Made by a program: the position numbers and the translations under genes. Below the pieces are notes generated by a model, which made no database searches, was not told where the DNA came from, and saw nothing but the letters and a program-made list of their open reading frames with translations. A stretch of DNA of 64,000 nt. Origin: an uncultured virus (IMG/VR IMGVR_UViG_3300010348_001764) (Duplodnaviria; Heunggongvirae; Uroviricota; Caudoviricetes). The stretch lies in the IMG/VR virus record IMGVR_UViG_3300010348_001764. One strand, 5' to 3'. Below are positions 1-59,274 of this stretch, one piece after another (within the stretch, counting starts at the first letter, position 1; every line of letters begins with the position of its first letter).

Positions 1-438
1 CTGATCGTCAACATGCGCTCGAACGACGTCATCCTCGGCTTCACGAACGACGTGTTCCAGTTCACGATGCTGCAGGAGATCATGGCCGTCCAGCTGCGCG
101 AGTTCTACCCGAACCTGGACGTCGGCTACTACTTCCACAACGCCGGCTCGATGCACATCTACGATCGCCACTTCGAGATGGCCGGCAAGATCATCAAGGA
201 CGAGCGCGCCGTGGACGTGTCCATGATCAAGATGGACGTCTTCGATGAGAAGACCCTTCTCAACCTGCTGGGCGTCAACGCTGTGTGGGTGACCGAGGGC
301 ATGAACCCCGAGTTTGACTTCGACAACCTCGAGCCCTTCAAGCAGCTGTCGCCGTACTGGCAGACGCTCATCAAGTTCTGCTTCGCTGAGGACCACGACG
401 CGTCGCACGACATCTTCGGCCTGCCGCACGACGACTGA
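1..438 (+). CDS. Thymidylate-synthase-fold dCMP-modifying enzyme (dCMP hydroxymethylase/hydroxylase, T4 gp42-like), 5'-truncated by the window edge
   Basis: VNMRSNDVILGFTNDVFQF...AGSMHIYDRHF matches the TS-family RSxD and HxY motifs. It has Asp (NDVF) at the specificity position where dUMP-specific ThyA has Asn (compare PFNIASY in the 20569 gene). Confidence 0.8.
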   Translation: MIVNMRSNDVILGFTNDVFQFTMLQEIMAVQLREFYPNLDVGYYFHNAGSMHIYDRHFEMAGKIIKDERAVDVSMIKMDVFDEKTLLNLLGVNAVWVTEGMNPEFDFDNLEPFKQLSPYWQTLIKFCFAEDHDASHDIFGLPHDD

Positions 439-441
439 CAG

Positions 442-783
442 ATGGCAGAGCTTCGCACCGTTGGAAAGCACCACTGGTGCGAGCGCTGCCGAACGTTTCA
501 CAAGCACGCCGACTTCGATCAGCAGGAGCTGATCGACCGGGCCGTCGAGGACCTCGCAGCCCAGATTGATGCGGAGATTCTAGCGGACCTCCTGAAGGAA
601 CCAAATGCGCTACGAGAAGCAGATCAACGAGGCGTACGAGCGCCTGGGGTTCAAGCCCCGCGACAACCAGGTCGAGCACTGCAACCAGGTGATCGAGGCC
701 TTCCTCGACGAGGGGTTCACCAACGTGGTGCTCTCAGCACCAACTGGTACGGGCAAGTCGATCATCGGGGCCGTCGTCGCTGA
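442..783 (+). CDS. Small hypothetical protein with CxxC motif; 3' part overlaps the helicase gene
   Basis: ATG follows the upstream stop directly; HWCERCRTFH motif. The long overlap with 605..2350 lowers confidence. Confidence 0.35.
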   Translation: MAELRTVGKHHWCERCRTFHKHADFDQQELIDRAVEDLAAQIDAEILADLLKEPNALREADQRGVRAPGVQAPRQPGRALQPGDRGLPRRGVHQRGALSTNWYGQVDHRGRRR

Positions 784-2350
784 CGTCATTCACTCGATCA
801 AGTACCCAGACGACCCAGCGCACGCCTCCTTCATGCTGACCGCCACGAACGTGCTGGCGCAGCAGTACGACGACGCCTTCGGCCAGGAGGATGGCCAGCC
901 GTGGGACGGCCGCTTCCTTGTTGTGAAGGGCGCATCCAACTACGACTGCGCGGCCCTCTCCACCGACGAGGAGCCGGCACGGGCTGACAGCTGCGCGATC
1001 ATGCTCTTCAAGAAGCAGGGCATGCAGGACATCCTCGACAAGTACTGCGAGAAGTGCGAGTACAAGTGGTCGCGGGCAATGCGCAACCGCACGCGCCACC
1101 TCATCACGAACTACTCGTACTACTTCATCGACCGCATGTACGCGACGCACCCGATGGAGAAGCGCTCGGTGTGCATCTTCGACGAGGCGCACCTGCTGAA
1201 CGACCTGTTCGTGGAGCACAACGCCATCTACTTCTCCGAGAAGCGGCTGACGCAGTTCGAGATGGAAACGGCTGAGCTGCTGGACGGGCAGGGCGGCTTT
1301 CACGTGATCAAGCGCGACCTGGTGCAGGGCAAGATCAACGAGAAGACGTACCAGGACTACCTCAAGAAGCTGCAGGACCTGTACAACGGCGTGTCAGATG
1401 CGCTCAAGGCCCGAGCCGACCGCAACGTGCGCAACCACTCCAAGTACCTGAAGCTGAACCGCGCCTCCAAGAAGTACCACGACCTCGCGTGCAAGATCGA
1501 CGACCTGTTCCTCTTCGAGTACCCACACGTCTTCGAGTACAAGCCGAAGGACCTCAAGAAGCAGCAGAACGAGCACGAGGTCACCGTCAAGCCCATCTTC
1601 GTGGGTGAGATGTTCGAGTGCCTCCACAACGCCGAGCACAACCTCTTCATGTCCGCCACCGTCACCGAGAGCTACATGAAGCGGACGATGACGCTGCCTG
1701 GCACCACGAAGCACATTCGCCTTGCCCCGCAGTTTCCGCCCGAGAACAAGAAGGTGGTGTTCCTGAAGCCGCAGACGCTCAACTACACCACAATGAAAGA
1801 CCCTGAGGTGGTCAAGCGGCTCTGCGCCAACGTCTGGCAGATCGTGGAGCACCACACCAAGGCCGGCGAGCGCGGCATCGTGCTCTGCCCCTCCTTCAAC
1901 GTCGTGCAGTCCATCGCTGAGACGCTGCGAGGAGTGAAGATCCCTGGCCTCCGCGTCTTCGAGCAGGTGCGTGGACAGAAGCTGGCTGAGCTTCTCGATG
2001 ACTTCAAGGACTACGAGGGCGGACCTGCGGTCATCCTCACGCCGTCCGGCTTCGAGGGCATCGACCTGCCTGGTGACCTGAGCCGGTACCAGGTCATCGT
2101 GAAGGCGCCGTTCGGTTCCCTCGGAGACCGAAGGATTGAGCACATCCTCAACGTCTACCCAGACATCTACTCGCTCATCACGCTCATGAAGGTCGTGCAG
2201 GGTGCAGGTCGATCGGTCAGGTCGAAAGAGGACCACGCCGTGACGTACATGCTGGACACGGCGATCCAGCGGCTCTGGACGAAGAACAACGAATGGGCCG
2301 ATGAGTTTCTAACCTCCTTCAAGTCATCCCTGAAGGACCTGGTAGAGTAA
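605..2350 (+). CDS. DinG/XPD-like superfamily 2 helicase
   Basis: Walker A APTGTGKS, DEAH box, MSAT motif III, EGIDLPGD, QGAGRSVRS motif VI, and four Cys consistent with an FeS cluster. Confidence 0.85.
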   Translation: MRYEKQINEAYERLGFKPRDNQVEHCNQVIEAFLDEGFTNVVLSAPTGTGKSIIGAVVADVIHSIKYPDDPAHASFMLTATNVLAQQYDDAFGQEDGQPWDGRFLVVKGASNYDCAALSTDEEPARADSCAIMLFKKQGMQDILDKYCEKCEYKWSRAMRNRTRHLITNYSYYFIDRMYATHPMEKRSVCIFDEAHLLNDLFVEHNAIYFSEKRLTQFEMETAELLDGQGGFHVIKRDLVQGKINEKTYQDYLKKLQDLYNGVSDALKARADRNVRNHSKYLKLNRASKKYHDLACKIDDLFLFEYPHVFEYKPKDLKKQQNEHEVTVKPIFVGEMFECLHNAEHNLFMSATVTESYMKRTMTLPGTTKHIRLAPQFPPENKKVVFLKPQTLNYTTMKDPEVVKRLCANVWQIVEHHTKAGERGIVLCPSFNVVQSIAETLRGVKIPGLRVFEQVRGQKLAELLDDFKDYEGGPAVILTPSGFEGIDLPGDLSRYQVIVKAPFGSLGDRRIEHILNVYPDIYSLITLMKVVQGAGRSVRSKEDHAVTYMLDTAIQRLWTKNNEWADEFLTSFKSSLKDLVE

Positions 2351-2351
2351 A

Positions 2352-3467
2352 ATGGGACTATCGATCTTCGCTCCAAGGCCTCGAAAGCCGAAGCGGCACA
2401 GACGAAAGCGAAGCAACGCAGTGAAAATCCGACGTCCCTACGAAAACGCAATGGAAGATCTCGAGAAGTTCTGCCCTCCCGAGGTGCCTCGGAATGAGGT
2501 GGTGTTCGGCACCTACGGCACCGAGGAGTGGATCTACGCCGACTTCCTGCGCAAGCGCCACCTCGACGGCAAGCGCACCCTTGAGAGCGAGACCACGTGG
2601 CTGACGCCAGTCAGTTTCAACCTCGCGGACTGGGTGCGCGAGCGCAGCTTCCCCTCCTTCTCGTTCCTGACCTCGCGCCTCGTTCTGATCCCGACCGAGT
2701 TCGGCTTCATGAAGATCGCGTCGTCGAACAAGAAGATCACCGTCACCCTTACCGGCAATCCCGAGTGGGTCGACGACGAGCTCAAGCTGCTGGCCTCCCG
2801 TTTCTCCAAGGCCGAGAACCTCGTGCAATGGGTGTACAACGTCAACGGCCACACCATCGACGTGCCGCTCAACTACAGGGCCGGCATCAACGCGGCCTAC
2901 CCATGGATCGGAGAGCCGTACACCGAGTACATCGACAAGTACCTTGACAGCGAGGCCTGCGTGCTGATCCTCATCGGTCCGCCTGGAACGGGCAAGAGCA
3001 CGCTCATCAAGAACATCATCAAGCGGTCCGGCGGCGACGCGATGGTGGCCTTCGATGAGAAGGTGCTGGGCGGCGACGACTTCTTCGCCACCTTCATGGA
3101 CAGCGACAAGGACATCCTCGTGATGGAGGACGCCGACGCGTTCCTCGAAAGCCGCGAGGACGGCAACACGATGATGCACCGCTTCCTGAACCTCTCCGAC
3201 GGTCTCATCTCCACCACCGGCAAGAAGATCATCTTCTCGACCAACCTTCCCAGCATCGCGTCAATCGACGAGGCGCTGCTTCGACCAGGCCGCTGCTTCG
3301 ACGTGCTGCAGTTCCGCGCGCTCACGCGCAAGGAGGCTCAGGCCGTCCTCGATGAGGTCGGTGACAAGCGCGAGCTGGTTGATGGTGCTGAGCTCACGCT
3401 CGCCCAGATCTTCGCTTCACAGCCGCACGGCGGCAGCCCACGACGAAAGGTAGGGTTCACAGCATGA
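2352..3467 (+). CDS. AAA+ ATPase (start uncertain)
   Basis: GPPGTGKS Walker A, VMEDAD Walker B, STN sensor, ALLRPGRCFD second region of homology. Confidence 0.85.
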   Translation: MGLSIFAPRPRKPKRHRRKRSNAVKIRRPYENAMEDLEKFCPPEVPRNEVVFGTYGTEEWIYADFLRKRHLDGKRTLESETTWLTPVSFNLADWVRERSFPSFSFLTSRLVLIPTEFGFMKIASSNKKITVTLTGNPEWVDDELKLLASRFSKAENLVQWVYNVNGHTIDVPLNYRAGINAAYPWIGEPYTEYIDKYLDSEACVLILIGPPGTGKSTLIKNIIKRSGGDAMVAFDEKVLGGDDFFATFMDSDKDILVMEDADAFLESREDGNTMMHRFLNLSDGLISTTGKKIIFSTNLPSIASIDEALLRPGRCFDVLQFRALTRKEAQAVLDEVGDKRELVDGAELTLAQIFASQPHGGSPRRKVGFTA

Positions 3468-3775
3468 CCATCGTAAGCCGCCCACAGCCAAGCGCACCGA
3501 GCACGAACGGTCTCGGAACCGGCTCCAACACGCTCAACCTCACCGACGAGCAGCTCGAGCTGGTGATGGCTCTCGTCTACAACTGCCGGCTCGGTACAGG
3601 CACTCCCTACTCGCAGGCGGCCTTCGAGCTCATCGGGTTGATCGAGGATGAGTTCGGCGACGACTTCATGCAGGATGCCTCCGACAACGTCAACCTCCAG
3701 GTGACGATCGAAGACGAGCACGGGTTGGTAGAATACGAGACAGACGGCTCGCAGTTCATCACGTTGGAGGTCTGA
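3464..3775 (+). CDS. Small highly acidic hypothetical protein
   Basis: Overlapping start/stop coupling on both sides; 18 Asp/Glu versus 2 Arg and no Lys in 103 aa. Confidence 0.65.
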   Translation: MTIVSRPQPSAPSTNGLGTGSNTLNLTDEQLELVMALVYNCRLGTGTPYSQAAFELIGLIEDEFGDDFMQDASDNVNLQVTIEDEHGLVEYETDGSQFITLEV

Positions 3776-4353
3776 TGTCGAAGTACGTGTACGCAATCGA
3801 GGGGCTTGACCGCCTCGGCAAGTCGACCCTCATCGAGGGCATCCGCAACCGCCTCGGCTACTACGAGGTGATCCACTTCAGCAAGCCGCAGCGCCTCGCT
3901 GCCTACGAGGGCGCCGCTGCCGTGAGCGGCGTTCCACCGCAGTCGCTGCAGTCGTTCCACTACCAGCGCGCCGGCTTTCTGAACTCGATGCTGCTCGCCA
4001 AAAGCGGCGCACGCCTCATCTTCGATCGCTGGCACATCGGCGAGGCCGTGTACGCGCCCATGTACCGTGGCTACAGCGGTGACTACGTCTTTCAGCAGGA
4101 GCTGGACACGGGACTGGCTGACACGGACAACGTGCGCCTCATCCTTCTGTGGGAGGACTTCGACGTTTCAACCCACTTCGTCGACGACGGCGAGAGCCTG
4201 GGTCCAATCCAGAAGCGGGCTGAGGAGCAGATGCGCTTCATGGAGGCCTTCGCGAAGTCCAACATCCGCGACAAGCGCATGATCTGCGTCACCGACCAGG
4301 CGGTCGGCGGCTTCAAGCCCAAGGACTGGATCCTTCACGAAGCACTGGCATGA
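3775..4353 (+). CDS. Thymidylate-kinase-like dNMP kinase
   Basis: IEGLDRLGKST P-loop and IFDRW motif typical of the TMK family. Confidence 0.85.
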   Translation: MSKYVYAIEGLDRLGKSTLIEGIRNRLGYYEVIHFSKPQRLAAYEGAAAVSGVPPQSLQSFHYQRAGFLNSMLLAKSGARLIFDRWHIGEAVYAPMYRGYSGDYVFQQELDTGLADTDNVRLILLWEDFDVSTHFVDDGESLGPIQKRAEEQMRFMEAFAKSNIRDKRMICVTDQAVGGFKPKDWILHEALA

Positions 4354-4568
4354 AGGTGGTGGTGATCAGCAACCCGAGCTCGCCAGCTACGGCGTTTGCG
4401 CGAGCTCGCGCGTTTGGCTACATCACCTTCATCTACGAGCACGCAGATCCCGATCACGTTCTCTCACCTAACAAGTTCACGTATGTGAACGACGATGAAG
4501 AGCTGAAGGAGAAGCTGCACCTCCTCCAGCTTGACCCGTCGGTCCAAGAGGAGATCATTCGATGGTAG
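4350..4568 (+). CDS. Small protein resembling the C-terminal segment of T4 beta-glucosyltransferase
   Basis: FIYEHADPDHVL..FTYVNDDEELKEKLHLLQ resembles the BGT C-terminus as recalled (LIDEEFDTKHRII..RFYVNNRAELIDRVNELK); translationally coupled to neighbours. Confidence 0.5.
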   Translation: MKVVVISNPSSPATAFARARAFGYITFIYEHADPDHVLSPNKFTYVNDDEELKEKLHLLQLDPSVQEEIIRW

Positions 4569-5065
4569 CATCTACCTTTGGCGCGGCCTTTGACAAGCTG
4601 CCGCACAAGCTGCAGCAAGGCATCTGTCGCTCTCTCGTGCTGCGCAAGCAGAACTACCTGGCCGCGCAGGCCGGAAAGCGCTGGAAGCAGATGCGCGTGA
4701 TCCTGGTGGGTGACCGACCAGGCAACGGCGCCAAGAAGCTGCCAGCCAACCATCACCACACGCCGTTCTACAGCACGAAGAACTCCAGCCTCTGGCTAAA
4801 CAAGCAGCTGGAAGAGCTGGGGGTGCATGAGAACGACGTTCTCTGGCTCAACAGCGCCGACCTAAACGGCGTGCCCACCGACCCAAAGCTGCTTGAGGGT
4901 TGGGGAAAGCACACCATCATCGCGCTGGGCGGCAATGCCTCGAAGTGGCTGGAGGAGCACGGAAAGCCGCACCTAAAGGTCTTCCACCCACAGGCGTGGA
5001 AGCGCTTTCACTCGAAGGAGCCCTACCCGCTCCTTGGTCACCTGCAACAGCTGCTCGACCTATAA
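4562..5065 (+). CDS. Uracil-DNA-glycosylase superfamily protein
   Basis: VILVGDRPG (motif A-like), PF, WLN, IIALGGNA and HP (motif B-like) follow the UDG-fold pattern. Confidence 0.65.
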   Translation: MVASTFGAAFDKLPHKLQQGICRSLVLRKQNYLAAQAGKRWKQMRVILVGDRPGNGAKKLPANHHHTPFYSTKNSSLWLNKQLEELGVHENDVLWLNSADLNGVPTDPKLLEGWGKHTIIALGGNASKWLEEHGKPHLKVFHPQAWKRFHSKEPYPLLGHLQQLLDL

Positions 5066-5144
5066 AAAGTCCGGCCAAAGCCGGCCACTTCCGGGTACAA
5101 TGGCATAAGTAACTCGGGCCCGGGTTTCGGGTGAAGGAGACAGC

Positions 5145-6038
5145 ATGAAGAACGTGATGGTGACGGGCGGGTTGGGCTACATCGGCGCCCACCTCGTAGA
5201 TGAGCTGAAGGAGCGAGGACACAAGGTCTTCGTGATCGATCAGAATGAAAAGAGTCCCAACCTCGACTACGTGTCGAAGCGGGCGATGGTGCGGTTGAGC
5301 TCGCTGCAGGACTACCAGCTGCGTCTGCCGGGCGAAGAGCGCATGTTTGACGCGATCGTGCACCTCGCGGCCTACATCGACGTGGCCGAGAGCGTGCGCA
5401 AGCCGCTCAGCTACTGGGACAACAACATCAACAGCACCACCGCGGTGATCGAGAAGTTCGAGACGCCACACTTCATCCTGGCATCGACCGGCACCGCCTT
5501 CGATCCTGCCAACGCCTACGCGCACTCGAAGGTCGCCTGCGAGACGATCGTGCGCGAGGCGGCTGACGCGGACCACGCCACCATCGGCGGCTACACGATC
5601 TTCCGCTACTTCAACGTGAGCGGCCTGAAGAAGGGCATCAACCCGACCGGTGTCCCAACCCACCTCATTCGCCGCGCCGCGATGGCCGCCGCCGGAAAGA
5701 TTCCAGAGCTCACCGTTATGGGCTCGGACTGGGAAACTCGGGACGGCACGGCGATTCGTGACTACATTCACGTTGAGGACCTGGCTGCCTCCATCGCGAA
5801 TGCGATTGATGTAGGTCCAGCAAACACGCCCCATGAGGGACTTGGGTCAGGAAGCGGCTCGACCGTCCTCGAGGTAGTCCAATCAATGAAACGCGTCACG
5901 GGGGTCGACTTTCGAGTTACAATGGCTTCACGTAGACCCGGTGACGTTGCCTCCATGGTATGCGCCAACCAGTATCCTCACATCCGATTGACCAAGACGC
6001 TTGACGACATGTGTCTTTCCGCCTACGAGAACGTATGA
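5145..6038 (+). CDS. galE: UDP-glucose 4-epimerase-like extended SDR
   Basis: TGGLGYIG NAD-binding motif, HLAA, YAHSK (YxxxK), RYFNVSG, DGTAIRDYIHVEDLA, RRPGD. Confidence 0.88.
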   Translation: MKNVMVTGGLGYIGAHLVDELKERGHKVFVIDQNEKSPNLDYVSKRAMVRLSSLQDYQLRLPGEERMFDAIVHLAAYIDVAESVRKPLSYWDNNINSTTAVIEKFETPHFILASTGTAFDPANAYAHSKVACETIVREAADADHATIGGYTIFRYFNVSGLKKGINPTGVPTHLIRRAAMAAAGKIPELTVMGSDWETRDGTAIRDYIHVEDLAASIANAIDVGPANTPHEGLGSGSGSTVLEVVQSMKRVTGVDFRVTMASRRPGDVASMVCANQYPHIRLTKTLDDMCLSAYENV

Positions 6039-7198
6039 AGATCCTCATTACCGGCTTCAATAAAAATCAATGCACGCGCAAGTTCTACCTTCGGCAGCAG
6101 CTGAAGGTTGTGCCGTCGCACTACTCGCTTGTCAACTGCCTGATGGACATGGGCTACGAGGTGGACCAGCGACAGGTCACCATCGGAGAGGACCTGAGCG
6201 GCTACGACGAGATCATCGTGTTCATCGCCGGCCCGCGCCAGCTGGTGGCGACGACCGTCTACGAGGGCCTGTGGGCCATCTCGCAGCGCCCCGACTGCAT
6301 CCTCGCCTTCGACGACTGGCAGGTGCCCGACCTCTTCAAGGGCGTGGCCAAGTGCGATGGCAAACCTGACGAGCTGTTCGCGCAGTTCATTCTCGACGTC
6401 AACAAGAAGACGCTCGAGGAAGTCAAGCCGTACGAGAAGCAGTTCATGCAGGCGCTGAGTGTGATCACCGCCAAGAAGAACCGCATGCTCATCAGCGCCT
6501 TCCGCACCGAGCACCTCGGTGACAATGAGACGTATGGTCCGCACCTGCTGTTCGACAAGATCGACTACCCACGCAACCGCCTGTTCGTGTACAACCCGAA
6601 CCCCTACCACCGCAACCGCATGTGGGGCGATATCGGCCACGAGGGCGATGAAGATCCGACATGGAAGCCGTCGCCGCTCTCCTACACAGTCGGTCCTCGT
6701 CCTGAGAAGGAGCGCCGCTTCAACTTCGCCAGCCTCGTGCAGTCGAAGACGCAGAAGTGGCTCAAGAAGCAGGGCTACACCGGCAACCCGAAGGACGATG
6801 AGCAGGGCACGATCGGTGGCTGGGCAGTGGACCTCTACGGCTCAAAGGCCGAGACGCAGAAGCGCCTGACAGAGGATCAGATGGTCGAGGTCATCACCCG
6901 CGACTGGGGCTGCCTGATGCCGGGCTACGAGCACGCTGGCTCGGGTTGGTGGCGGGCTCGCCCGCTGCAGTGCGCCGCCGCCAGCTCGATCCTGCTGGGC
7001 GACGACAAGGAGCTGCGCGTCTACTACGGCAACGACTACCCGTTCTACGGTCTGAAGGCTGCCGATATCGTCGAGGCCACTGACATGGAGCTACGTGAGA
7101 TCGCTCAGGCGCAGACCGACTTCCTGCACACCATTCATCCGCTCGACAAGAGCGTGCAGGAAGCAGAGCTGCTCGCTGCACTGGTGGCGCCGAAATGA
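6035..7198 (+). CDS. GT-B fold glycosyltransferase, T4 beta-glucosyltransferase-like
   Basis: N-terminal MKILITG strand, LMDMGYEVD, DLSGYDEIIVF, ILAFDDW (candidate catalytic Asp), and C-terminal GWWRARPLQCAAASSILL similar to the BGT sugar-donor region. Coupled to galE. Confidence 0.65.
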   Translation: MKILITGFNKNQCTRKFYLRQQLKVVPSHYSLVNCLMDMGYEVDQRQVTIGEDLSGYDEIIVFIAGPRQLVATTVYEGLWAISQRPDCILAFDDWQVPDLFKGVAKCDGKPDELFAQFILDVNKKTLEEVKPYEKQFMQALSVITAKKNRMLISAFRTEHLGDNETYGPHLLFDKIDYPRNRLFVYNPNPYHRNRMWGDIGHEGDEDPTWKPSPLSYTVGPRPEKERRFNFASLVQSKTQKWLKKQGYTGNPKDDEQGTIGGWAVDLYGSKAETQKRLTEDQMVEVITRDWGCLMPGYEHAGSGWWRARPLQCAAASSILLGDDKELRVYYGNDYPFYGLKAADIVEATDMELREIAQAQTDFLHTIHPLDKSVQEAELLAALVAPK

Positions 7199-7497
7199 TC
7201 GGCTACAAGCTCTTCACGCAGCGGGCTGACGGCTCGCTCGGTCCCCTCTTCATCAACCGCTCGCAGCGGCTGGAGGTCGGCGTTGAGTACCAGGCCGAGG
7301 ATCACCCGACGAAGGGCTACGCGCACCGCCCGGGCTGGCACATCTGCTCGAAGCAGGAAGCGCCGCACCTGAGCAAGAAGGGGCGGGTCTGGGCAAAGGT
7401 GAAGTTCAGCGGCTACACGTCGCACCAGCGGCCGGCGAGCCAGGGTGGGCTGTGGTACACCGCCAACAAGATGAAGATCATGGAGGTTCTCCAATGA
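7195..7497 (+). CDS. Hypothetical protein inside the sugar operon
   Basis: ATGA overlaps on both sides; codon usage like neighbouring genes. Confidence 0.7.
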   Translation: MIGYKLFTQRADGSLGPLFINRSQRLEVGVEYQAEDHPTKGYAHRPGWHICSKQEAPHLSKKGRVWAKVKFSGYTSHQRPASQGGLWYTANKMKIMEVLQ

Positions 7498-8729
7498 GGG
7501 TGCTCGTTGTAGGAGCCGGCTTCGCCGGCGCAGTGGTTGCTCGTGAGTTGGCTGAGGCCGGCCATGAGGTCACGGTCATCGACAAGCGCAACCACGTTGG
7601 TGGCAACGCGTACGACTACGTGAACGAGCACGGTATCCGCGTGCACAAGTACGGTCCCCACATCTGGCACACGTCGAACGACGAGGTGCACGAGTGGGTG
7701 TCGCGCTTCACCGACTGGGTGCCGTACCAGCACTACGTTCGCGCGCAGCTGGGCGATGACTTCAACGACGTGACCGTGCCACTGCCCATCAACCCAGCCA
7801 CCATCGAGGAGGTCTTCGACATGGAGTTCGAGGACTGGCTGGAGGAGAACGAGAAGTGGGTCGACGTCGATGACGAGTACCAGCCCTACGTGAAGCGGGG
7901 CGCACATGCGGCCTTCCTCGAGACGAAGGTGGAACACCACGACCCGGTGACCAACAGCCGCGAGCACGTCGAAAACAGCGTCGGCAAGGAGCTGTGCGAC
8001 CTCTTCTTCGCTCCCTACACCCGCAAGATGTGGGGCCTGGAGCTGGAGCAGCTGCCGGCATCGGTCGCCGCCCGCATTCCGACGAACGTGGAGAGCGGCA
8101 GCCACCTGTACTTTCCGAAGGACAAGCACCAGTACATGCCGGCCGACGGCTACACCGCCATCTTCAACCGCATCTTCGACCACCCCAACATCACGGTGCG
8201 GCTTGACAGCGTGTATGAGGACGGTCGGGTGTGGCGCAACGGCTACGTGCTGGGTAAGGAGTTCGACCACGTCTTCACCGCTCAGCCGATCGACGAGTAC
8301 TTCAAGTGCGAGCTGGGTGAGCTGCCATGGCGCTCGGTAAAGATGCATGTCGTTTCGCTGCCGATGCCGAGCGTGCTGCCCTCGCCGGTGCTGAACTTCA
8401 CTCACTCAGGTCCGCACACGCGCGTCACCGAGTGGAAGAAGTTCCCAGCCCATGGCGGCAACGAGTTCTGGACGACGCTGACGTTTGAGGAGCCCTGCGA
8501 CTACCGCCTCAACGACATGGAGCGCTACTACCCGGTGAAGAGCGCTGACGTCAACGACCCGAACCGTGAGCTCTACAAGCAGTACAAGGAGAAGGCCGAC
8601 GCGCTTCCTGACGTCACCTTCATCGGCCGTTGCGGCCAGTACGCCTACCTCGACATGCACGCCGCCATTTCATCCGCCCTGGCCTCAGTCCGCAAGTTCC
8701 TCAAGGAGAAGAGCGATGCTCAAGTTTGA
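7494..8729 (+). CDS. glf: UDP-galactopyranose mutase (FAD-dependent)
   Basis: GAGFAG dinucleotide fold, GGNAYD, HKYGPHIWHT, YTRKMWG, YFPKDKHQYMP, RYYPV, GRCGQYAYLDMH. Confidence 0.93.
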   Translation: MRVLVVGAGFAGAVVARELAEAGHEVTVIDKRNHVGGNAYDYVNEHGIRVHKYGPHIWHTSNDEVHEWVSRFTDWVPYQHYVRAQLGDDFNDVTVPLPINPATIEEVFDMEFEDWLEENEKWVDVDDEYQPYVKRGAHAAFLETKVEHHDPVTNSREHVENSVGKELCDLFFAPYTRKMWGLELEQLPASVAARIPTNVESGSHLYFPKDKHQYMPADGYTAIFNRIFDHPNITVRLDSVYEDGRVWRNGYVLGKEFDHVFTAQPIDEYFKCELGELPWRSVKMHVVSLPMPSVLPSPVLNFTHSGPHTRVTEWKKFPAHGGNEFWTTLTFEEPCDYRLNDMERYYPVKSADVNDPNRELYKQYKEKADALPDVTFIGRCGQYAYLDMHAAISSALASVRKFLKEKSDAQV

Positions 8730-9423
8730 ACGACCAACCCTCATCACGCTCACGGCACCGACGTGCAGCGGCAAGTCCTACCTGCTCAACGCGCTGGAGG
8801 AGCGCGGTCTCGTCGACCGCATCGTTAGCACGACCACTCGCCCAATGCGTGAAGGCGAGCGCGAAGGCGTCGACTACTACTTCATCTCGCAGGAGCACTC
8901 GCAGAAGCTGGAGGCCGACGAGAACTTCTTCGAGCTGATCACCTTTCGCGGCACCCGCTACGGTGTGACCAACCTGGAGATGGAAGGCAAGATGCGCGCT
9001 GAGCGGCCGCCGATCATCGTGCTCGAGCCACAGGGGCTCGCCATCTACGAGCAGAAGTGCCGCGAGAACGGCTGGGACGTCTTCAAGGTCTACGTGCACG
9101 TCATCGAGAGCCTGCGCATCCAGCGCCTGAACGCGCGCACCGAGAAGGACGTGATGCAGCTGGTCAATGGCGCCTCGGTTCCGAACGGCATTCACTCACG
9201 CACGTTCAGCCAGCTCGCCCTCGAGAAGGCAGCGCAGCAGCTGCCGAAGATCATCGCGGCGCACACCGACCGCCTGCTCTCCATCACCGGTGAGGAGCGC
9301 CACTGGTCCAACGTGACCACCTTCGACGCGCAGGTGCCAGGCGACAACCTCGAGAAGGCGATCGAAACGCTGACCGCCGGCGTTGAGTGGCGCAACAAAC
9401 GCGTGCGGCAGGGCCTCGTATGA
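8716..9423 (+). CDS. gmk: Guanylate-kinase-like nucleotide kinase
   Basis: APTCSGKS P-loop, STTTRPMREGEREGVDYYFIS, RYG. Confidence 0.85.
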   Translation: MLKFERPTLITLTAPTCSGKSYLLNALEERGLVDRIVSTTTRPMREGEREGVDYYFISQEHSQKLEADENFFELITFRGTRYGVTNLEMEGKMRAERPPIIVLEPQGLAIYEQKCRENGWDVFKVYVHVIESLRIQRLNARTEKDVMQLVNGASVPNGIHSRTFSQLALEKAAQQLPKIIAAHTDRLLSITGEERHWSNVTTFDAQVPGDNLEKAIETLTAGVEWRNKRVRQGLV

Positions 9424-9926
9424 GCGACAAGAGCAAGGGCCGCATCGGCTTCACCTGCTCGACCTTCGACCTCTTCCACGCAGGACACATCCTGATGCTG
9501 GAGGAGGCGAAGCGCCAGTGCGACTACCTCATCGTCGGCCTGCAGACCGACCCAACGATCGACCGCCCGTTCAAGAACAAGCCGGTCCAGTCGGTCTTCG
9601 AGCGCTACACGCAGGTGAAGTCGTGTCGGTTCGTGGACGAGATCGTCGTCTACGCCACCGAGGCGGAGCTGCGCGACGTTCTGCTCGCGTACCCGATCGA
9701 CGTGCGCATTCTCGGTGAGGAGTACCAGGGCAAGGACTTCACCGGTCACGACATCGACAGCATGGAGTTCTACTTCAACCGTCGGCGCCACTCCTTCTCA
9801 TCGAGCAGCCTGCGTGATCGCGTGTACCAGATGGAGCTGGCAAAGAGCCGCCCCGTCCAGATCACCGAGCCTGGCGACGGCGGCCACGACTGCCCTGTCT
9901 GCAACGCCACTGGTCGCCTGACCTAA
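9420..9926 (+). CDS. Glycerol-3-phosphate cytidylyltransferase-like (TagD family)
   Basis: FDLFHAGH (HxGH), LIVGLQTD, ERY..V.SCRFVDEI, RRHSFSSSSLR; extra C-terminal CPVC motif. Confidence 0.85.
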   Translation: MSDKSKGRIGFTCSTFDLFHAGHILMLEEAKRQCDYLIVGLQTDPTIDRPFKNKPVQSVFERYTQVKSCRFVDEIVVYATEAELRDVLLAYPIDVRILGEEYQGKDFTGHDIDSMEFYFNRRRHSFSSSSLRDRVYQMELAKSRPVQITEPGDGGHDCPVCNATGRLT

Positions 9927-9943
9927 ACCACCTGGTGACATGT

Positions 9944-9972
9944 AACCCCTCAACCTGCGTTGAGGGGTTTAC
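9944..9972 (+). terminator. Hairpin after the sugar operon, overlapping a -35-like GTTTAC
   Basis: 11-bp inverted repeat aacccctcaac/gttgaggggtt. Confidence 0.55.
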
Positions 9973-9996
9973 TCCTGCGCGTCCCTAGGCTACAAT
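9967..9996 (+). promoter_or_regulatory. Early sigma70-type promoter GTTTAC-N18-TACAAT
   Basis: Matches T4-like early promoter consensus; intergenic, upstream of 10054. Confidence 0.6.
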
Positions 9997-10053
9997 GGCA
10001 TACGAGCGCGCCGCTGCGCGCTATCTTCGTACTAATGCCTGATTGGAGCGCGC

Positions 10054-10572
10054 ATGTCATCTTCTCGTGAGTACCGCCTCTACACGTTCGTCGCCGGTCT
10101 GTACCTGAACCACCTGCAGAAGGGGTTGCAGACTGCCCACGTCGTGAGCGAGCTGTCCCAGTTCAAGATCAACACGATGGAGCGCGTGGCCTTCGATGCC
10201 TGGGCCATGTTCGACAAGACGATCATCATCTGCGACGCCGGCAACCACAAGGGCGTGGTCGACTGCTGGGCGGAGCTGTCCCGCATCAACTCAGCGCTGA
10301 ACCTGCCGGCGGCCATCTTCTACGAGGACGAGCAGTCGATGAACGGCATGGCCACGGCCTGCGGTGTCATCGTCCCGCGCGAGTACTGGGACGTGAAGTT
10401 CGTGGACAACTTCGTGCCACCGGGCGAGTACGGCGTGGAAGCCCGGCCTGCCTACTGGGTGCACACCTACGAGGGCGCCTCAGGTGCGATGCGCGAGTGC
10501 CGCTACGACGTCACCCACCCTGAGGGCCAGTTCTGCTCGCACATCAAGCAGTACCGCCTGACCTCCGCGTAA
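10054..10572 (+). CDS. Peptidyl-tRNA hydrolase Pth2-like protein
   Basis: LY.FV...L...QKGLQTAH, W...DKTIII, IFYED, TACG follow the Pth2 fold pattern. Confidence 0.55.
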   Translation: MSSSREYRLYTFVAGLYLNHLQKGLQTAHVVSELSQFKINTMERVAFDAWAMFDKTIIICDAGNHKGVVDCWAELSRINSALNLPAAIFYEDEQSMNGMATACGVIVPREYWDVKFVDNFVPPGEYGVEARPAYWVHTYEGASGAMRECRYDVTHPEGQFCSHIKQYRLTSA

Positions 10573-11634: not shown

Positions 11635-11816
11635 ACGCGTTCATTTTGACGATGGTCATCACGCTGTCCACCACGACGCAGAACCGCGCGATGGTCTCCA
11701 TCGTGACCGAGTACGGCACGCAGAAGGCCTGCGAGGAAGCGAAGGAGCTGAACCGTGCTGCTCTGGCCGACGGTCGCATCATCCTTGCCACCTGCACGCG
11801 CAAGGTGATCATGTAG
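11631..11816 (+). CDS. Small protein with hydrophobic N-terminus
   Basis: GTG start overlapping the upstream TGA, RBS aggag. Confidence 0.55.
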   Translation: MNAFILTMVITLSTTTQNRAMVSIVTEYGTQKACEEAKELNRAALADGRIILATCTRKVIM

Positions 11817-12492
11817 ATCTTGCTGCTATAGTGGCAGCAAATTTTGCTCGCCTCTCAGGTGTCCAAGTGGGCCGCTTCTTACCAATCTGCGCTTCGCTGA
11901 TCTTCTTGCGATGCTGCTCTGACTTGGGCTTTCCTGCATGCACCGCGCTGATCTTTGCCTTCGTCTCGTCAGTGTGAACACCCCATGATCCCCTCTTTTG
12001 GCCCCGCTGGGCATCGGCATGCTTCTTCACCGCAGCAGGATCCTTCTTGATACCTCGCAATGCTGAAGCCCTCTTCTCGTTGGCCTCAGGCGTCTGTTTC
12101 CTTGTTGCAGGATCCCGCCTCTTCGCGGCCTCACTGATCTTGCGACGGTGCTCGTCACTGAACTTCGCTGTTTTCCAGAAGCGACTTGCGTCATAGCGGC
12201 GATTGGTTACATGTGCTCGGCCTAGTCTCTTGTTTGTGTTCCTGATCATGAGGTTCAGGGCGGCGATCATCTTGCCTCGTGCCACGCCTGAATGCATCTT
12301 CACGAGCAGCAGGTGCAGCAGGAAGTGCTCTCGAGGTGTTACACTCACGAGGTTCTCAGCAGCGTTTGTTCCTCCAAGGGAGGCAGGGATAATGTGGTGC
12401 TTCTCCAACCTACCCGTGTAACTGTCACCGTTTGTTACATACCGAGCACGGGCTTGTGATACAATAGCATCATAGCATCTGTGGTAGTTCAT
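11809..12492 (-). mobile_element. Free-standing HNH homing endonuclease with NUMOD3-like repeats (copy 1)
   Basis: EKHHIIPASLGGTN..NLV.VTPREHFLLHLLL, repeats SEQHRKKISEA; RBS GGAGG; antisense; more A/T-rich than its neighbours. Confidence 0.88.
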
Positions 12493-12527: not shown

Positions 12528-14516
12528 ATGGCAAAAACGATCGAACAGCGTTTCGTGAAGTTGAGTGAGGTAGATCATGTCCTCCTCCGCCCCGGTCGCT
12601 ACATCGGTTCCATCAAGCCCCACACCGCCGTCGAGTTCGTGCCGAACGTCAAGTCCGCCACGGACGTGTCGATGGTCAAGGGCCAGTACACGTACAACCC
12701 CGGCTTCCTCAAGCTCTTCGACGAGGTCATCAGCAACTCGGCTGACCACTCGAAGCGGCCCGAAGGCAAGCACCTCGACACCATCCGCGTCGAGGTGGAC
12801 CAGGCCAAGGGCGAGATCACGGTCTACGACAACGGCGGCATCCCCGTCGTGAAGCACAAGGAGTACGACCAGTGGGTGCCGGAGATGATCTTCGAGCTCC
12901 GCGCTGGCACGAACTTCGACGACAGCGAGGAGCAGACCCTCACCGGCCAGAACGGTGAAGGTGCCGCGCTCACCTGCATCTTCTCGACCAAGTTCCGCGT
13001 CGAGACCTGCGACGGCAAGAACCGCTTCCTGATGACGTTCAGCGAGAACTCGCAGCACCGTCCCGCAGCGAAGGTCGAGCCGGCCAAGGGCGACAAGGGC
13101 TACACCCGCATCACGTACATTCCCGACTTCGAGAAGCTGGGCATGTCCGGCATCGACGGCGACAACATGAACATGCTGCTCGCTCGGGTCTACGAGGTGG
13201 CAGCCACCAACACGCACCTCAAGGTCTACTTCAACGGCACCCGCGTGATGACGCGGTCGTTCAAGGACTACATCGAGATGTTCACCGGCCCGAACGGTGA
13301 GTACGTCTTCGACGACGGCGACAGCTTCAAGGTCGGCGTGGCCAAGTCCGACGACGGCTTCATCCACACCAGCTTCGTGAACACGAGCCGCACCAAGACC
13401 GGTGGTTCGCACATCACCTACGTGGTGAACCAGATCGTCGACGCGGTTCGCGAGCACATCAAGAAGAAGCACAAGGTCGAGGTCAAGCCAGCCGACGTTC
13501 GCAACCACATGCACCTCTTCGTGGACGCGACGATCGTCAACCCGCGCTACTCGAGCCAGACCAAGGACGAGCTCATCACCGAGCCCAGCGCCTTCGGCCG
13601 CACCTGGACGGTGCCTGAGAAGTTCATCGCCAAGCTGCTCAAGACCGAGATCGTCAAGGCGATCCTCGACTGGGTCGCTGCGAAGGAGCAGGCCGCGCTG
13701 ATGGCCGACCTCCGCAAGGCGAACAAGGACGTCGTGCAGACGAACTACCGTCGCGTGGACAAGTTCGCCGACGCTCTCGAGAAGCACAAGCGCCATGAGT
13801 GCATCCTCTTCCTCGCCGAGGGTGACTCCGCTGCCAAGTCCCTCTTCGCGGCCCGCGGCAAGAACCCGCTCATCGGCACCTTCCCGCTGAAGGGCAAGCC
13901 GCTGAACGTTCGCGAGAAGGACATCGCTCGAGTGCTCGGTCTGGACAAGAAGAAGGAGCGCGAGAAGGAAGGCAAGAAGACGGAGCCGAACGAGATCCAG
14001 AAGATCCTCACGATCCTGGGCCTGCAGATCGGCGTGCCGGTCAAGTCCCTCCACGACCTCAACTTCGGCAAGGTCGCCTTCGCGAACGACGCCGACGTGG
14101 ACGGCTCGCACATCGCCGGCCTGCTCATGAACCTCTTCGACACCTTCTGGCCGGAGCTGTTCAAGATGGGCTTCGTCCACATCCTCCGCACGCCGACCGT
14201 GAAGGTCTACCTCAAGGACAAGACCGTCCTCGAGTTCTTCACCGAGCGCGAGTTCAAGGAATGGGCCAAGTCCGAAGGTGCTCGCACCAAGGGCTGGAGC
14301 CACCGCTACTTCAAGGGCCTCGGCACTACCAAGACCCCCGACTTCGTGCCGTACATGGAGAACCTGGACAAGTACCTGTTCCAGGTGACCGTTGACGGTG
14401 ACGAGGACAAGCAGGCCATCGACCTCGCCTTCAACGGTGAACGCGCCGACGACCGCAAGAAGTGGCTGGAGACGCCGGCCGGCAACTTCGAGGACTTCAT
14501 CGCCGAGGCGGTGTAA
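12528..14516 (+). CDS. DNA topoisomerase II large (ATPase + TOPRIM) subunit, uninterrupted T4 gp39+gp60 equivalent
   Basis: HVLLRPGRYIGS, EVISNSAD, DNGGIP, GQNGEGA, EGDSA, PLKGK, DADVDGSHI, YFKGLGT. Confidence 0.95.
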   Translation: MAKTIEQRFVKLSEVDHVLLRPGRYIGSIKPHTAVEFVPNVKSATDVSMVKGQYTYNPGFLKLFDEVISNSADHSKRPEGKHLDTIRVEVDQAKGEITVYDNGGIPVVKHKEYDQWVPEMIFELRAGTNFDDSEEQTLTGQNGEGAALTCIFSTKFRVETCDGKNRFLMTFSENSQHRPAAKVEPAKGDKGYTRITYIPDFEKLGMSGIDGDNMNMLLARVYEVAATNTHLKVYFNGTRVMTRSFKDYIEMFTGPNGEYVFDDGDSFKVGVAKSDDGFIHTSFVNTSRTKTGGSHITYVVNQIVDAVREHIKKKHKVEVKPADVRNHMHLFVDATIVNPRYSSQTKDELITEPSAFGRTWTVPEKFIAKLLKTEIVKAILDWVAAKEQAALMADLRKANKDVVQTNYRRVDKFADALEKHKRHECILFLAEGDSAAKSLFAARGKNPLIGTFPLKGKPLNVREKDIARVLGLDKKKEREKEGKKTEPNEIQKILTILGLQIGVPVKSLHDLNFGKVAFANDADVDGSHIAGLLMNLFDTFWPELFKMGFVHILRTPTVKVYLKDKTVLEFFTEREFKEWAKSEGARTKGWSHRYFKGLGTTKTPDFVPYMENLDKYLFQVTVDGDEDKQAIDLAFNGERADDRKKWLETPAGNFEDFIAEAV

Positions 14517-19250: not shown

Positions 19251-19462
19251 ACCTCATCCAAACTCTCGTCAACGCCGTCTTTGCTACGATCATGACGCTG
19301 GTCATGACGTACCTCGCCAAGGTCACCGCCGACACCGCCTTCATCATCGGCGTGGTGGTCTTCATCGGCCTGGAGATCCGCGCTGACCTGCGCCGCGTCG
19401 AGCAGCGCCTGAAGGAAAACCACTTCTTCCTCGACACCGAGCGCGATGAAGAAGAGGCGTGA
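19247..19462 (+). CDS. Small membrane protein (two hydrophobic segments)
   Basis: Two hydrophobic stretches and a charged C-terminus. Confidence 0.6.
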
Positions 19463-20016: not shown

Positions 20017-20035
20017 AGCGGGTTACAATGAAGGC

Positions 20036-20572
20036 ATGACTACCCTCAAAGAGCGTTCCAAGTACCTGTCCTACCTGCTGCGCCACGCCCCTGAGAAGGC
20101 CGGCCTGACCCTCGACAAGGAGGGCTGGTGCTCAACCACGCAGCTGGTCCGCAACACCGACTTCACGCTGATGGAGCTGGATGAGATCGTCCGGCTTGAC
20201 GAGAAGCAGCGCTACTCGTTCGACGATGAGCTGAAGTCCAACATCCGCGCCAACCAAGGCCACAGCACCGAGAAGGTCAAGATCACCTTCAAGCGCGCAG
20301 TTCCACCAACCGTGCTGTACCACGGCACCAGCGATGAAGCTGCAGCGAAGATCTGGGCCGAAGGACTGAAGCCGATGAGCCGACACCATGTCCACCTCTC
20401 AGCCGACCTGGAGACAGCCCAGGCAGTTGGTGGCCGGCGCAAGCGCGACCTTGCCATCTTCCACGTCGACGCGAAGTGGATGCTGGCAGATGGTCACCAG
20501 TTCTACATCTCTGACAACGGAGTGTGGCTTGTTGATGCCGTTCCGCCCAAGTACCTTAGGCTCGTCAAATGA
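20036..20572 (+). CDS. kptA: RNA 2'-phosphotransferase (Tpt1/KptA)
   Basis: SYLLRH, KQRY, IRANQGHS, LYHGT, HVHLS, NGVWL. Confidence 0.92.
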   Translation: MTTLKERSKYLSYLLRHAPEKAGLTLDKEGWCSTTQLVRNTDFTLMELDEIVRLDEKQRYSFDDELKSNIRANQGHSTEKVKITFKRAVPPTVLYHGTSDEAAAKIWAEGLKPMSRHHVHLSADLETAQAVGGRRKRDLAIFHVDAKWMLADGHQFYISDNGVWLVDAVPPKYLRLVK

Positions 20573-21534
20573 TCGACCACAACCCTGACCATCTCGAGTT
20601 CCACATGAACGCTGAGTACGACTACCTCGACCTGCTGCGCTACATCCTCGAGAAGGGTGAGGACCGCGGCGACCGCACGGGTACCGGCACCCGCGCTACC
20701 TTCGCGCACACGCTGAACATCGACCTCAGCAAGAAGTTTCCGCTCCTGACCACGAAGTCGGTGCCGTTCAAGTCGGTACTGAGCGAGCTGCTGTGGTTCA
20801 TTGAGGGCAGCGGCGACGAGCGCCGCCTCGCCGAGATCCTGCACGGTACCCGCGACCCTTCCAAGAAGACCATCTGGTCACCGAATGCCGAGGGCACGAG
20901 CGGTTCCAAGTTCAAGCCCGCCTACCCAGGAGACCTGGGCCGGGTGTACGGCGTACAGTGGCGCAAGTGGCAGCACGTCAAGCTGAAGGACGCGGCGGAC
21001 CACCTCAGCCACCCCGATGGTGGCATCACGTACTTCGACGCTCGAGTGCTCGTGGAGGAGGTCGACCAGCTCAAGGACGTCATCAACAAGCTGAAGACCA
21101 ATCCCACCGACCGACGCATCATCATGACTGCCTGGAACCCAGGCGAGCTCAGCGAGATGGCCCTCCCGCCGTGCCACATGTTCGTGCAGTTCTACCTGTC
21201 GAACGACCGCAAGCTGAGCGCGCAGATGTACCAGCGCAGCGTCGACACCTTCCTCGGTCTGCCCTTCAACATCGCCTCGTACGCCCTGCTGGTGCACATG
21301 ATCGCGAACGTGATCGACGCGGTTCCTGGCACGCTGACGCTGAACCTCGGCGACACGCACATCTACAGCGACCATCTTGACCAGGTGCGCGAGCAGCTCA
21401 CCCGCGCACCTCGTGGGCTGCCGACGCTGAAGATCAAGCGTAAGGTCGACAGCATCGATGACTTCACGATGGACGACTTTGAGCTGATCGGCTACGATCC
21501 GCACCCGCCGATCAAGGCGCGGATGGCCGCATAA
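20569..21534 (+). CDS. thyA: Thymidylate synthase (canonical, dUMP-specific)
   Basis: DRTGTGT, FPLLTTK, ELLWF, YGVQWR, MALPPCH, QRSVDTFLGLPFNIASY, HIY. Confidence 0.96.
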   Translation: MIDHNPDHLEFHMNAEYDYLDLLRYILEKGEDRGDRTGTGTRATFAHTLNIDLSKKFPLLTTKSVPFKSVLSELLWFIEGSGDERRLAEILHGTRDPSKKTIWSPNAEGTSGSKFKPAYPGDLGRVYGVQWRKWQHVKLKDAADHLSHPDGGITYFDARVLVEEVDQLKDVINKLKTNPTDRRIIMTAWNPGELSEMALPPCHMFVQFYLSNDRKLSAQMYQRSVDTFLGLPFNIASYALLVHMIANVIDAVPGTLTLNLGDTHIYSDHLDQVREQLTRAPRGLPTLKIKRKVDSIDDFTMDDFELIGYDPHPPIKARMAA

Positions 21535-59262: not shown

Positions 59263-59274
59263 GAGGAGCCTTCC

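Follow-up and report, generated by a model that had tools for sequence, protein, structure and literature searches.

The DNA of several phages carries sugars on a modified cytosine. In T4, gp42, a homologue of thymidylate synthase (TS), and a beta-glucosyltransferase (BGT) belong to the pathway to glucosylated 5-hydroxymethylcytosine (5hmC), whose presumed logic, a change of base at the nucleotide level followed by addition of the sugar at the DNA level, is also that presumed for the locus described here. In phage RL38JI, according to the accessible part of Lee et al. (2026, PMC13326640), galactose is the base-proximal hexose on 5-hydroxycytosine, to which it is joined by an ether at C5, and the UDP-galactopyranose mutase (Glf) of the phage is proposed to make UDP-galactofuranose (UDP-Galf). 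The same partial text places arabinofuranose on 5-hydroxycytosine in RB69 and DLP3, with a donor made through an arabinose 5-phosphate isomerase, a phosphatase and a kinase-nucleotidyltransferase. A post-replicative route is described in the accessible parts of PMC8256090 and bioRxiv 10.1101/2023.12.21.572611, where phage TET enzymes turn 5-methylcytosine in DNA into 5hmC, which methyltransferase/TET clusters glycosylate; the products given in the latter (Pyle et al. 2023) are hexose, N-acetylhexosamine and heptose, and its main text contains none of the terms furanos, mutase, galactose or UDP-Gal. The present report concerns a 64,000-nucleotide stretch of DNA, the window, from an uncultured virus of the Caudoviricetes (IMG/VR record IMGVR_UViG_3300010348_001764), in which a block of genes at positions 1-9926 joins a TS homologue to a GalE-like epimerase, a GT-B glycosyltransferase (the transferase in what follows) and a Glf. 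With slightly better than even chances, in our estimate, the genes that run from the TS homologue to about position 9926 form a cytosine hypermodification operon in which UDP-glucose becomes UDP-galactopyranose (UDP-Galp) and then UDP-Galf, the sugar finally reaching 5hmC in DNA.

By the coordinates of its open reading frames (ORFs), the block is a single same-strand (+) array with overlaps of 1-14 nt at the junctions at 3464, 3775, 4350, 4562, 6035, 7195, 7494, 8716 and 9420. An earlier account made from the DNA letters alone (the sequence-only reading) had named eight genes in it, tightly coupled on one strand: a TS-fold enzyme, a TMK-like kinase, a protein with a uracil-DNA glycosylase (UDG) fold, GalE, a BGT-like transferase, Glf, a Gmk-like kinase and a TagD-like nucleotidyltransferase. 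The ORF list bears out their positions and arrangement; a helicase (605-2350) and an AAA ATPase (2352-3467), which that account had left unnamed, also lie inside. The first gene is cut by the edge of the window. An overlapping viral record holds the full TS homologue (329 aa; L002:5315-6304:-), which starts 552 nt before the window and carries PF00303 over residues 13-262 (3.3e-28), and since tail-fibre genes in divergent orientation sit 5' of it, the TS homologue opens the block. The same grouping recurs in related viral loci and is therefore beyond chance; the UDG-fold gene, the cytidylyltransferase-like gene and the small ORFs are operon members as well. The genes of the block, and the separate thyA of the window, are as follows.

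1..438, + strand: predicted gp42-type dCMP hydroxymethylase (the TS homologue), 3' part; PF00303 6.4e-09 on the fragment
605..2350, + strand: XPD/DinG-type DNA helicase; PF13307 4.5e-18, PF06733, phrog_2488 2.3e-83
2352..3467, + strand: AAA ATPase; PF00004 9.6e-12, phrog_14322 2.2e-61
3464..3775, + strand: 103-aa protein; no Pfam, PHROG or NCBIfam match
3775..4353, + strand: TMK-like P-loop nucleotide kinase; phrog_761 5.3e-10, PF02223 E 0.001 (under cut-off)
4350..4568, + strand: 72-aa protein; no Pfam, PHROG or NCBIfam match
4562..5065, + strand: small UDG-fold protein, 167 aa; AlphaFold model and Foldseek, no Pfam match
5145..6038, + strand: GalE-like UDP-hexose 4-epimerase, 297 aa; PF01370 2.8e-33
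6035..7198, + strand: GT-B glycosyltransferase, 387 aa; fold, phrog_14998 5e-29, no Pfam match at E 0.01
7195..7497, + strand: 100-aa protein between transferase and Glf; phrog_12224 2.1e-34
7494..8729, + strand: UDP-galactopyranose mutase (Glf); PF03275 1e-47
8716..9423, + strand: guanylate-kinase-like nucleotide kinase with a C-terminal extension of ~85 aa; PF00625 8.7e-15, phrog_1815 7e-30
9420..9926, + strand: cytidylyltransferase-like nucleotidyltransferase; PF01467 3.1e-15
20569..21534, + strand: canonical thymidylate synthase thyA; PF00303 2.5e-100, dUMP-class motif QRSVD...PFN

Set beside T4, the window offers a TS homologue with the active-site motifs of gp42 and a GT-B enzyme whose top solved match is T4 BGT. 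It departs from T4 in encoding its own donor supply (GalE plus Glf), which predicts a furanose; in its TMK-like and Gmk-like kinases, with no homologue of gp1 detected; in that a gp56-type dCTPase was not found in the overlapping record G001 or its relatives; and in a transferase without a Pfam match, whose sequence likeness to BGT is marginal. With RL38JI and the Pootjesviridae, as the accessible part of PMC13326640 presents them, the block has in common a phage Glf proposed to supply UDP-Galf for cytosine-linked galactose and the combination of TS homologue, TMK-like kinase and glycosyltransferase, so that the link between a phage Glf and galactose on cytosine is not new here. What differs is the base, which in RL38JI is 5-hydroxycytosine made by a TS homologue of the D169N type and in the window is predicted to be 5hmC, the TS homologue being of the hydroxymethylase type, and the first transferase, gp215 of RL38J1 being unrelated to that of the window by BLASTP. 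Moreover, the Glf of RL38J1 is gene 84, by its numbering far from genes 214-216, whereas the window Glf overlaps its operon neighbours. The sequence-only reading was aware of no described galactofuranosylated DNA base; the galactosyl-5-hydroxycytosine of RL38JI and the UDP-Galf proposed for its Glf weaken that claim of novelty. No report of galactofuranosyl-5hmC was found in a literature search that had most subscription journals outside its reach.

The prediction of the base comes from an alignment of five proteins: the window TS homologue, T4 gp42 (dCMP hydroxymethylase in the T4 record), RB69 gp48, RL38J1 gp216 and the window thyA. Their active-site regions, together with that of a Morganella phage protein, read as follows.

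Window TS homologue: Cys region DVPCT, motif MRSNDVILGFTND
T4 gp42: Cys region DFMCT, motif MRSNDVVFGFRND
RB69 gp48, RL38J1 gp216 and Morganella Rgz1 gp33: Cys region EYPCT, motif MRSQN...D
thyA/td class: Cys region PCH, motif QRS[VA]D...PFN

The catalytic cysteine (C146 of ThyA) is C170 and occupies an invariant column. At the position of ThyA Asn177 the window TS homologue has Asp (...GFTND), as does T4 gp42 (...GFRND), whereas the window thyA keeps ...GLPFN; the dCMP-type Asp that the sequence-only reading had seen in the fragment is thus present in the full protein, and Asp177 points to cytosine as the substrate. According to the accessible text of Lee et al. (2026, PMC13326640), phage TS homologues that make 5-hydroxy-dCMP, RB69 gp48 and RL38J1 gp216 among them, have Asn at the position of Asp169 in Escherichia coli ThyA. 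The residues of the window thyA at 142, 143, 146, 147, 165, 167, 169, 173 and 177 agree with the list in that paper, which makes the ThyA numbering secure. Judged by these residues, the window TS homologue, with RSND (Asp169) where RB69 gp48, RL38J1 gp216 and Morganella Rgz1 gp33 have RSQN, groups with T4 gp42 and not with the hydroxylase type. Since it keeps Asp169 like gp42 and lacks the D169N mark, its predicted product is 5-hydroxymethyl-dCMP and the predicted base 5hmC; of the two bases that the sequence-only reading had allowed, hydroxymethylcytosine is retained and 5-hydroxycytosine is not. The supply of dTMP is separate from the block, being served by the canonical thyA, as that reading had also held.

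Database relatives of the transferase number 728 at E 1e-5 or better, nearly all without a name. An AlphaFold model built from 29 relatives (predicted local distance difference test, pLDDT, 75.9) found T4 BGT first in both fold searches: in Foldseek against the PDB the top entry was 1qkj (E 6e-07, TM 0.51/0.55), and BGT entries made up four of the first five rows, while VIA-align over 48,161 chains ranked 1c3j first (Z 14.6, root-mean-square deviation 3.7, 286 aligned residues) and T4 alpha-glucosyltransferase sixth (Z 12.8). The GT-B fold, and with it the label 'BGT-like' of the sequence-only reading, is therefore supported by the model. Kinship to BGT in sequence appears marginal, BLASTP giving E 0.054 over 64 N-terminal residues; the family profile found nothing among PDB sequences, and BLASTP found no similarity to RL38J1 gp215 (best E 4.4) or RB69 gp47. 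T4 BGT belongs to CAZy family GT63.

For the donor, all 33 PDB sequence matches of the GalE-like protein are UDP-glucose/galactose 4-epimerases, its GGLGYIG (GxxGxxG) and YAHSK (YxxxK) motifs are seen in the alignment to 7k3p, and TIGR01179 is by a wide margin its best NCBIfam model (203.5 bits). The Glf aligns end to end with the Deinococcus mutase 3hdq (1.9e-70), its best PDB match, apart from an insertion of ~40 residues; all 13 PDB matches are UDP-galactopyranose mutases, the N-terminal FAD-binding Rossmann motif is present (PF13450 1.2e-20), and the stretches GAGFAG, GPHI(W/F)HT and YTRK(M/Q)WG of the flavin-binding and substrate regions are conserved relative to 3hdq. Both family names given by the sequence-only reading are thereby confirmed. 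By the chemistry of their families, GalE and Glf would together form a self-sufficient route from UDP-glucose to UDP-Galf. That the transferase uses this product is suggested by the adjacency of the genes and by the clade-wise link to Glf described below.

Gene context was compared across 74 viral-contig loci (handles L below) that encode transferase relatives of 38-100% identity, two of them identical to the window; loci were scored by tblastn with the window proteins, and 10 kb of upstream sequence was fetched. The co-occurrence of gp42-like, galE, transferase and glf genes on which the sequence-only reading had proposed to test its case is found. A TS homologue lies upstream in 63 of the 74 loci and in all 50 whose upstream sequence reaches 2,500 nt or more, whereas the 11 loci that lack it extend no more than 405 nt upstream; in every one of the 63 the motif is RSND...D, and in none RSQN. 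Of the 74 loci, 48 have Glf (46 of the 68 that extend 1,500 nt or more downstream), and 41 of these 48 Glf genes begin no further than 400 nt 3' of the transferase. A GalE-like gene accompanies 42 of the 74. Clustered at 90% identity, the transferases fall into 28 groups, 18 with Glf, nine without and one for which this is undetermined. A maximum-likelihood tree of 33 transferases contains two clades of nine rows each (support 100/99 and 100/100), joined at 92/69, in which 17 rows are Glf-linked and the other is L020, with too short a downstream flank to decide; Glf is lacking from a clade of eight rows (86/99) apart from these. The distant Glf-linked transferases of Aeromonas 25, FBB1, C48C1 and DSL-LC01 sit on long branches of unsure placement. 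From this distribution, the presence of Glf follows the transferase clade. Among the Glf-linked loci, L045 has the order DUF1599, TS, dCMP deaminase, DUF6552, cytidylyltransferase-like, GalE-like, transferase, Glf, C5 methylase-like, AhpC, UvsX; in L065, of the Glf-less clade, it is TS, DUF6445, family-2 glycosyltransferase, transferase, C5 methylase-like, and the gp45 and gp44 clamp genes.

Phage C48C1 is the closest cultured relative, its transferase being 37% and its Glf 44% identical to those of the window. No PF00303 (TS-family) gene was found in it; directly 5' of its transferase-Glf pair stands a TET/JBP dioxygenase (PF12851, 3.3e-17). The pair thus accompanies two unrelated routes to 5hmC, one of which acts only on DNA, and for this reason the acceptor would be 5hmC in DNA, not a nucleotide, a protein or a host glycan. 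The context in C48C1 is the best evidence in this analysis pointing to such an acceptor, and together with T4 BGT as the top solved match it makes transfer at the DNA level the most likely; the sequence-only reading had left the level open, and its nucleotide-level option is the less likely one. With the methyltransferase/TET clusters of PMC8256090 and bioRxiv 10.1101/2023.12.21.572611, as their accessible parts describe them, the predicted system shares post-replicative glycosylation of 5hmC in DNA, C48C1 itself joining a TET/JBP gene to a transferase of the window family and a Glf; it differs from them in reaching 5hmC by a nucleotide route and not by methylation and oxidation. Other cultured phages that carry transferase and Glf are Aeromonas 25, Aes508, phiAS4 and AS-gz, Stenotrophomonas IME13 and Erwinia FBB1; the two genes adjoin each other in the T4-like phages Aeromonas 25, which has a gp42-type TS as well, and FBB1. 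In the actinophage DSL-LC01 the pair lies near a C5 cytosine methylase. Hypothetical genes beside the transferases of DSL-LC01 and Phendrix, which are related to each other, were considered as TET-like and set aside, as they show no similarity to the TET of C48C1.

The pathway that we favour would run as follows. The TS homologue, from the motifs it has in common with T4 gp42, would convert dCMP to 5-hydroxymethyl-dCMP. By analogy with T4, the TMK-like kinase, possibly with the Gmk-like kinase, would raise this nucleotide toward the triphosphate, the step to 5-hydroxymethyl-dCDP presumably falling to the former, and the phage polymerase would build 5hmC into DNA. The GalE-like enzyme and Glf, whose families are assigned by sequence, would direct host UDP-glucose to UDP-Galp and, by ring contraction, to UDP-Galf. 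The BGT-like GT-B enzyme, putatively an hmC-DNA galactofuranosyltransferase, would then, once the DNA is replicated, move galactofuranose from UDP-Galf to the hydroxymethyl of 5hmC in the duplex, a step suggested by its fold, by its linkage to two unrelated kinds of hmC-making gene and by the clade-wise linkage to Glf. The product, galactofuranosyl-5hmC, would protect the genome from restriction and CRISPR nucleases in the way that glucosyl-hmC protects that of T4. The core of what the sequence-only reading proposed, a sugar from UDP-Galf placed on a modified cytosine as armour against nucleases, accordingly stands as far as fold, motifs and gene context carry it. If this reading is true, a furanose hexose joins the sugars known on 5hmC in phage DNA, and the 728 proteins define a widespread transferase family of freshwater, marine and cultured phages in which the choice of donor appears to switch by clade and in which one transferase-Glf cassette serves hmC made by either of two routes, through a TS homologue or through a TET/JBP dioxygenase. 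A new hmC sugar matters for the range of restriction, type IV and CRISPR systems that a phage evades, and the transferase could serve as a new enzyme for the selective labelling of hmC.

Among the alternatives, one keeps the base and changes the sugar: 5hmC would be glycosylated with an ordinary pyranose, glucose or galactopyranose, and Glf would serve a second sugar or host surface glycans. The closest match among solved structures, T4 BGT, takes UDP-glucose as donor, by the title of PDB 1j39; the clade of eight rows and the 22 of 68 informative loci without Glf imply that the family can work without it; and an Agrobacterium phage paper, in its accessible part, took the Glf of that phage as cell-wall-related (PMC6630229). 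We nonetheless judge this reading unlikely, because Glf stands so regularly within 400 nt 3' of the transferase, and overlaps its neighbours in the window, because its presence tracks the transferase clades, and because phages that are otherwise not related (Straboviridae, Kyanoviridae and an actinophage) carry the two genes as a pair; in addition, each of the viral records G001-G005 has a single member of the transferase family. A more distant departure makes the epimerase, mutase and transferase auxiliary glycan genes, acting on a virion protein or on host envelope polysaccharide, with the TS homologue next to them by accident. Glf is classically an enzyme of the cell wall or the O-antigen, and GT-B enzymes for lipopolysaccharide, mycothiol, glycogen and the like come nearly level with BGT in VIA-align (Z 13.7-12). 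Yet the transferase is linked to a gp42-type TS in all 50 informative loci, C48C1 has a TET/JBP DNA dioxygenase at the position of the TS, and the rest of the operon consists of nucleotide kinases, a helicase and a UDG-fold protein, all of which makes this a quite improbable account.

Two further possibilities concern what is known from other phages. The furanose might be one other than galactofuranose, as the sequence-only reading had allowed with UDP-L-Araf, the epimerase acting as a UDP-xylose 4-epimerase and the mutase as a UDP-L-arabinopyranose mutase to give arabinofuranosyl-hmC. With RB69 and DLP3, where PMC13326640 reports arabinofuranose on cytosine, the locus would share a furanose on a C5-oxygenated cytosine and a nucleotide-sugar pathway encoded by the phage; gp40 of Morganella phage Rgz1, distantly related to the transferase, stands in an arabinose 5-phosphate isomerase cluster; C48C1 has a UDP-glucose dehydrogenase ~13 kb 5' of its transferase; and the GalE-like protein and Glf both fall under their equivalog cut-offs. 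Pfam and NCBIfam scans of the window block, however, found neither a UDP-glucose dehydrogenase nor a UDP-xylose synthase, every PDB match of the two enzymes is a UDP-glucose/galactose 4-epimerase or a UDP-Galp mutase, and the phage arabinose route known from that source, an isomerase with a nucleotidyltransferase-kinase, is a different one. The favoured reading itself differs from RB69 and DLP3 in sugar and base, hexose on 5hmC against pentose on 5-hydroxycytosine. Arabinofuranose is thus, if anything, a shade less probable than the glycan account. Last, a system of the RL38JI type, with galactose ether-bonded to 5-hydroxycytosine, would fit the Glf, TMK-like kinase and TS homologue that this phage encodes and the galactose next to its base (accessible text of PMC13326640), but Asp169 in the window stands against Asn in the RL38J1 and RB69 enzymes and the transferase matches gp215 no better than E 4.4, so that we hold it very improbable indeed.

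With the galactofuranosyl-5hmC reading thus preferred, several findings count against it. Its base and its sugar are both predictions from the genes. The fold searches put BGT ahead by small margins, with Foldseek TM values of ~0.5; in VIA-align, PimA (2gej, Z 13.7) ties with BGT by the search's own rule; hhalign gives the family profile against T4 BGT a probability of 11% over 55 N-terminal columns; and the transferase has no Pfam match at E 0.01. On the donor side, the GalE-like protein misses the TIGR01179 equivalog cut-off of 262.3 bits, and Glf scores 286.6 bits against a TIGR00031 cut-off of 303.75. Glf is missing from those 22 of 68 informative loci, and since a whole clade does without it, the transferase family is not intrinsically specific for furanose. 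The D169N rule rests on the enzyme set of one paper. As for the nucleotide pool, searches covering G001 and its relatives, including the 97%-complete G004, found a T4 gp56-type dCTPase in none of five records and a dUTPase (PF00692) in none of three, blanks that prove little, and MazG (PF03819) gave only a sub-threshold match of 16 bits in a G004 ORF that has no counterpart in the window. With no dCTPase found, full replacement of cytosine is not assured. A part in clearing the pool was weighed for the 'hydrolase' at 10054-10572 (phrog_3668) and rejected, since its Atlas look-alikes point to peptidyl-tRNA hydrolase PTH2; it is unlike RL38J1 gp218.

The remaining genes of the block vary in how widely they recur. 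In L016-L021 and L024, which are close relatives, the helicase again separates TS from kinase, and the TMK-like kinase lies 5' of the transferase, inside the fetched flank. Support for the identity of this kinase, named as TMK-like by the sequence-only reading, is weak, consisting of the PHROG match and one to PF02223 that is under cut-off, and with RL38J1 gp214 and RB69 gp45 it shares the P-loop as its sole common part. The Gmk-like gene, correctly named before, follows Glf in L016-L019, L021 and L024; of its 28 PDB matches, 26 bear the name guanylate kinase and two are scaffold proteins in which one domain is guanylate-kinase-like. The 9420 protein has as best PDB matches ethanolamine-phosphate cytidylyltransferase 3elb (2.2e-23) and the glycerol-3-phosphate cytidylyltransferase TagD 1coz (1.5e-13), in agreement with the earlier 'TagD-like'; homologues of 55-60% identity stand between TS and GalE in nine distant marine loci (L032, L033, L043-L049), and the gene is also found 3' of Glf in the close relatives L017 and L024. 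The 100-aa protein between transferase and Glf was found by tblastn in L016 only, besides the window-identical L015 and L022. An ORF at 442-783 overlaps the helicase, recurs only in L015 and L022, and is probably no gene.

The UDG fold proposed for the 4562 protein holds in its AlphaFold model (pLDDT 92.4, pTM 0.87), whose best Foldseek match in the PDB is 1ui0 (E 1.8e-05) and whose listed matches are all UDG, UdgX or SMUG, members of the UDG superfamily. PF03167 was found on five of 120 homologues among the matches listed, the family profile had no significant match among PDB sequences, and the motifs GDRPG and HPQ are present in the translation. Family-4 UDGs carry a set of iron-sulfur cluster cysteines; the 167-aa protein has a single Cys and so lacks that set. 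As modelled, it is a compact, family-4-like UDG fold. An elaboration of the favoured pathway would employ both this protein and the cytidylyltransferase-like enzyme, the latter supplying a CDP-alcohol from which a phosphoethanolamine or glycerol-phosphate cap, charged and teichoic-acid-like, is added to galactofuranosyl-5hmC, and the former acting as base-flipping partner or surveillance enzyme. No cap transferase was identified, and we consider the idea distinctly improbable.

Some relatives show features of their own around the transferase. Genes like C5 cytosine DNA methylases (PF00145) occur at L045:12033-13292, L065:11082-12296, L092:11082-12326 and L093:11303-12577, directly 3' of or near the transferase or transferase-Glf pair, in marine T4-like loci with gp42-type TS and in two actinophages. 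A 350-kb relative, L024, in whose locus GalE is absent, carries between Glf and the Gmk-like gene a GGDEF diguanylate cyclase with a MASE11-like N-terminus (L024:12680-13813; PF00990, 1.2e-44). The gp40 of Rgz1 (L008:7001-8068) is 25% identical to the window transferase and adjoins the arabinose 5-phosphate isomerase; the TS homologue of that cluster shows RSQN, the motif of the 5-hydroxycytosine type. The window transferase family may include arabinosyltransferases too.

Megablast of window positions 1-10000 against a phage collection gave no match. The overlapping viral record G001 is 100% identical over window positions 1-3000; CheckV puts this 53-kb record at 15% completeness and the relative G004, of 349,660 bp, at 97%, so that the window phage is probably a jumbo phage with a genome of ~350 kb. 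A scan for promoters and terminators found no terminators above background and only weak promoter-like sites. At 63250-63949 the window has a run of 700 N, which makes the drop in GC to 39% at its end an artefact and not foreign DNA; ORF calls that span it (62999-63955, for example) are not to be relied on. Genes of RNA or tRNA repair type are scattered over the window (10054-10572, 19459-20572, 22312-22815, 37775-38905, 55695-56570 and 59960-60523), with PTH2-like, cpYpsA SLOG, Tpt1/KptA RNA 2'-phosphotransferase, phosphatase PHROG with a weak Macro match, T4 Rnl1-type RNA ligase, Thg1-like tRNA-His guanylyltransferase and cyclic-phosphate cREC_REC domain members; together they have the look of a toolkit to counter host defences that cleave tRNA. 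Homing-endonuclease genes (phrog_655, NUMOD3 motif) lie at 11809-12492 (-) and 58549-59700 (-), the former in the interval that separates the modification block from the split topoisomerase II genes (12528-14516 and 15146-16513). Host-like auxiliary genes (18375-19250, 39588-40220, 40988-41821 and 49244-49699) comprise DnaJ, a ClpP-type protease, PhoH and a PHROG match of PagP-like type (lipid A acylation).

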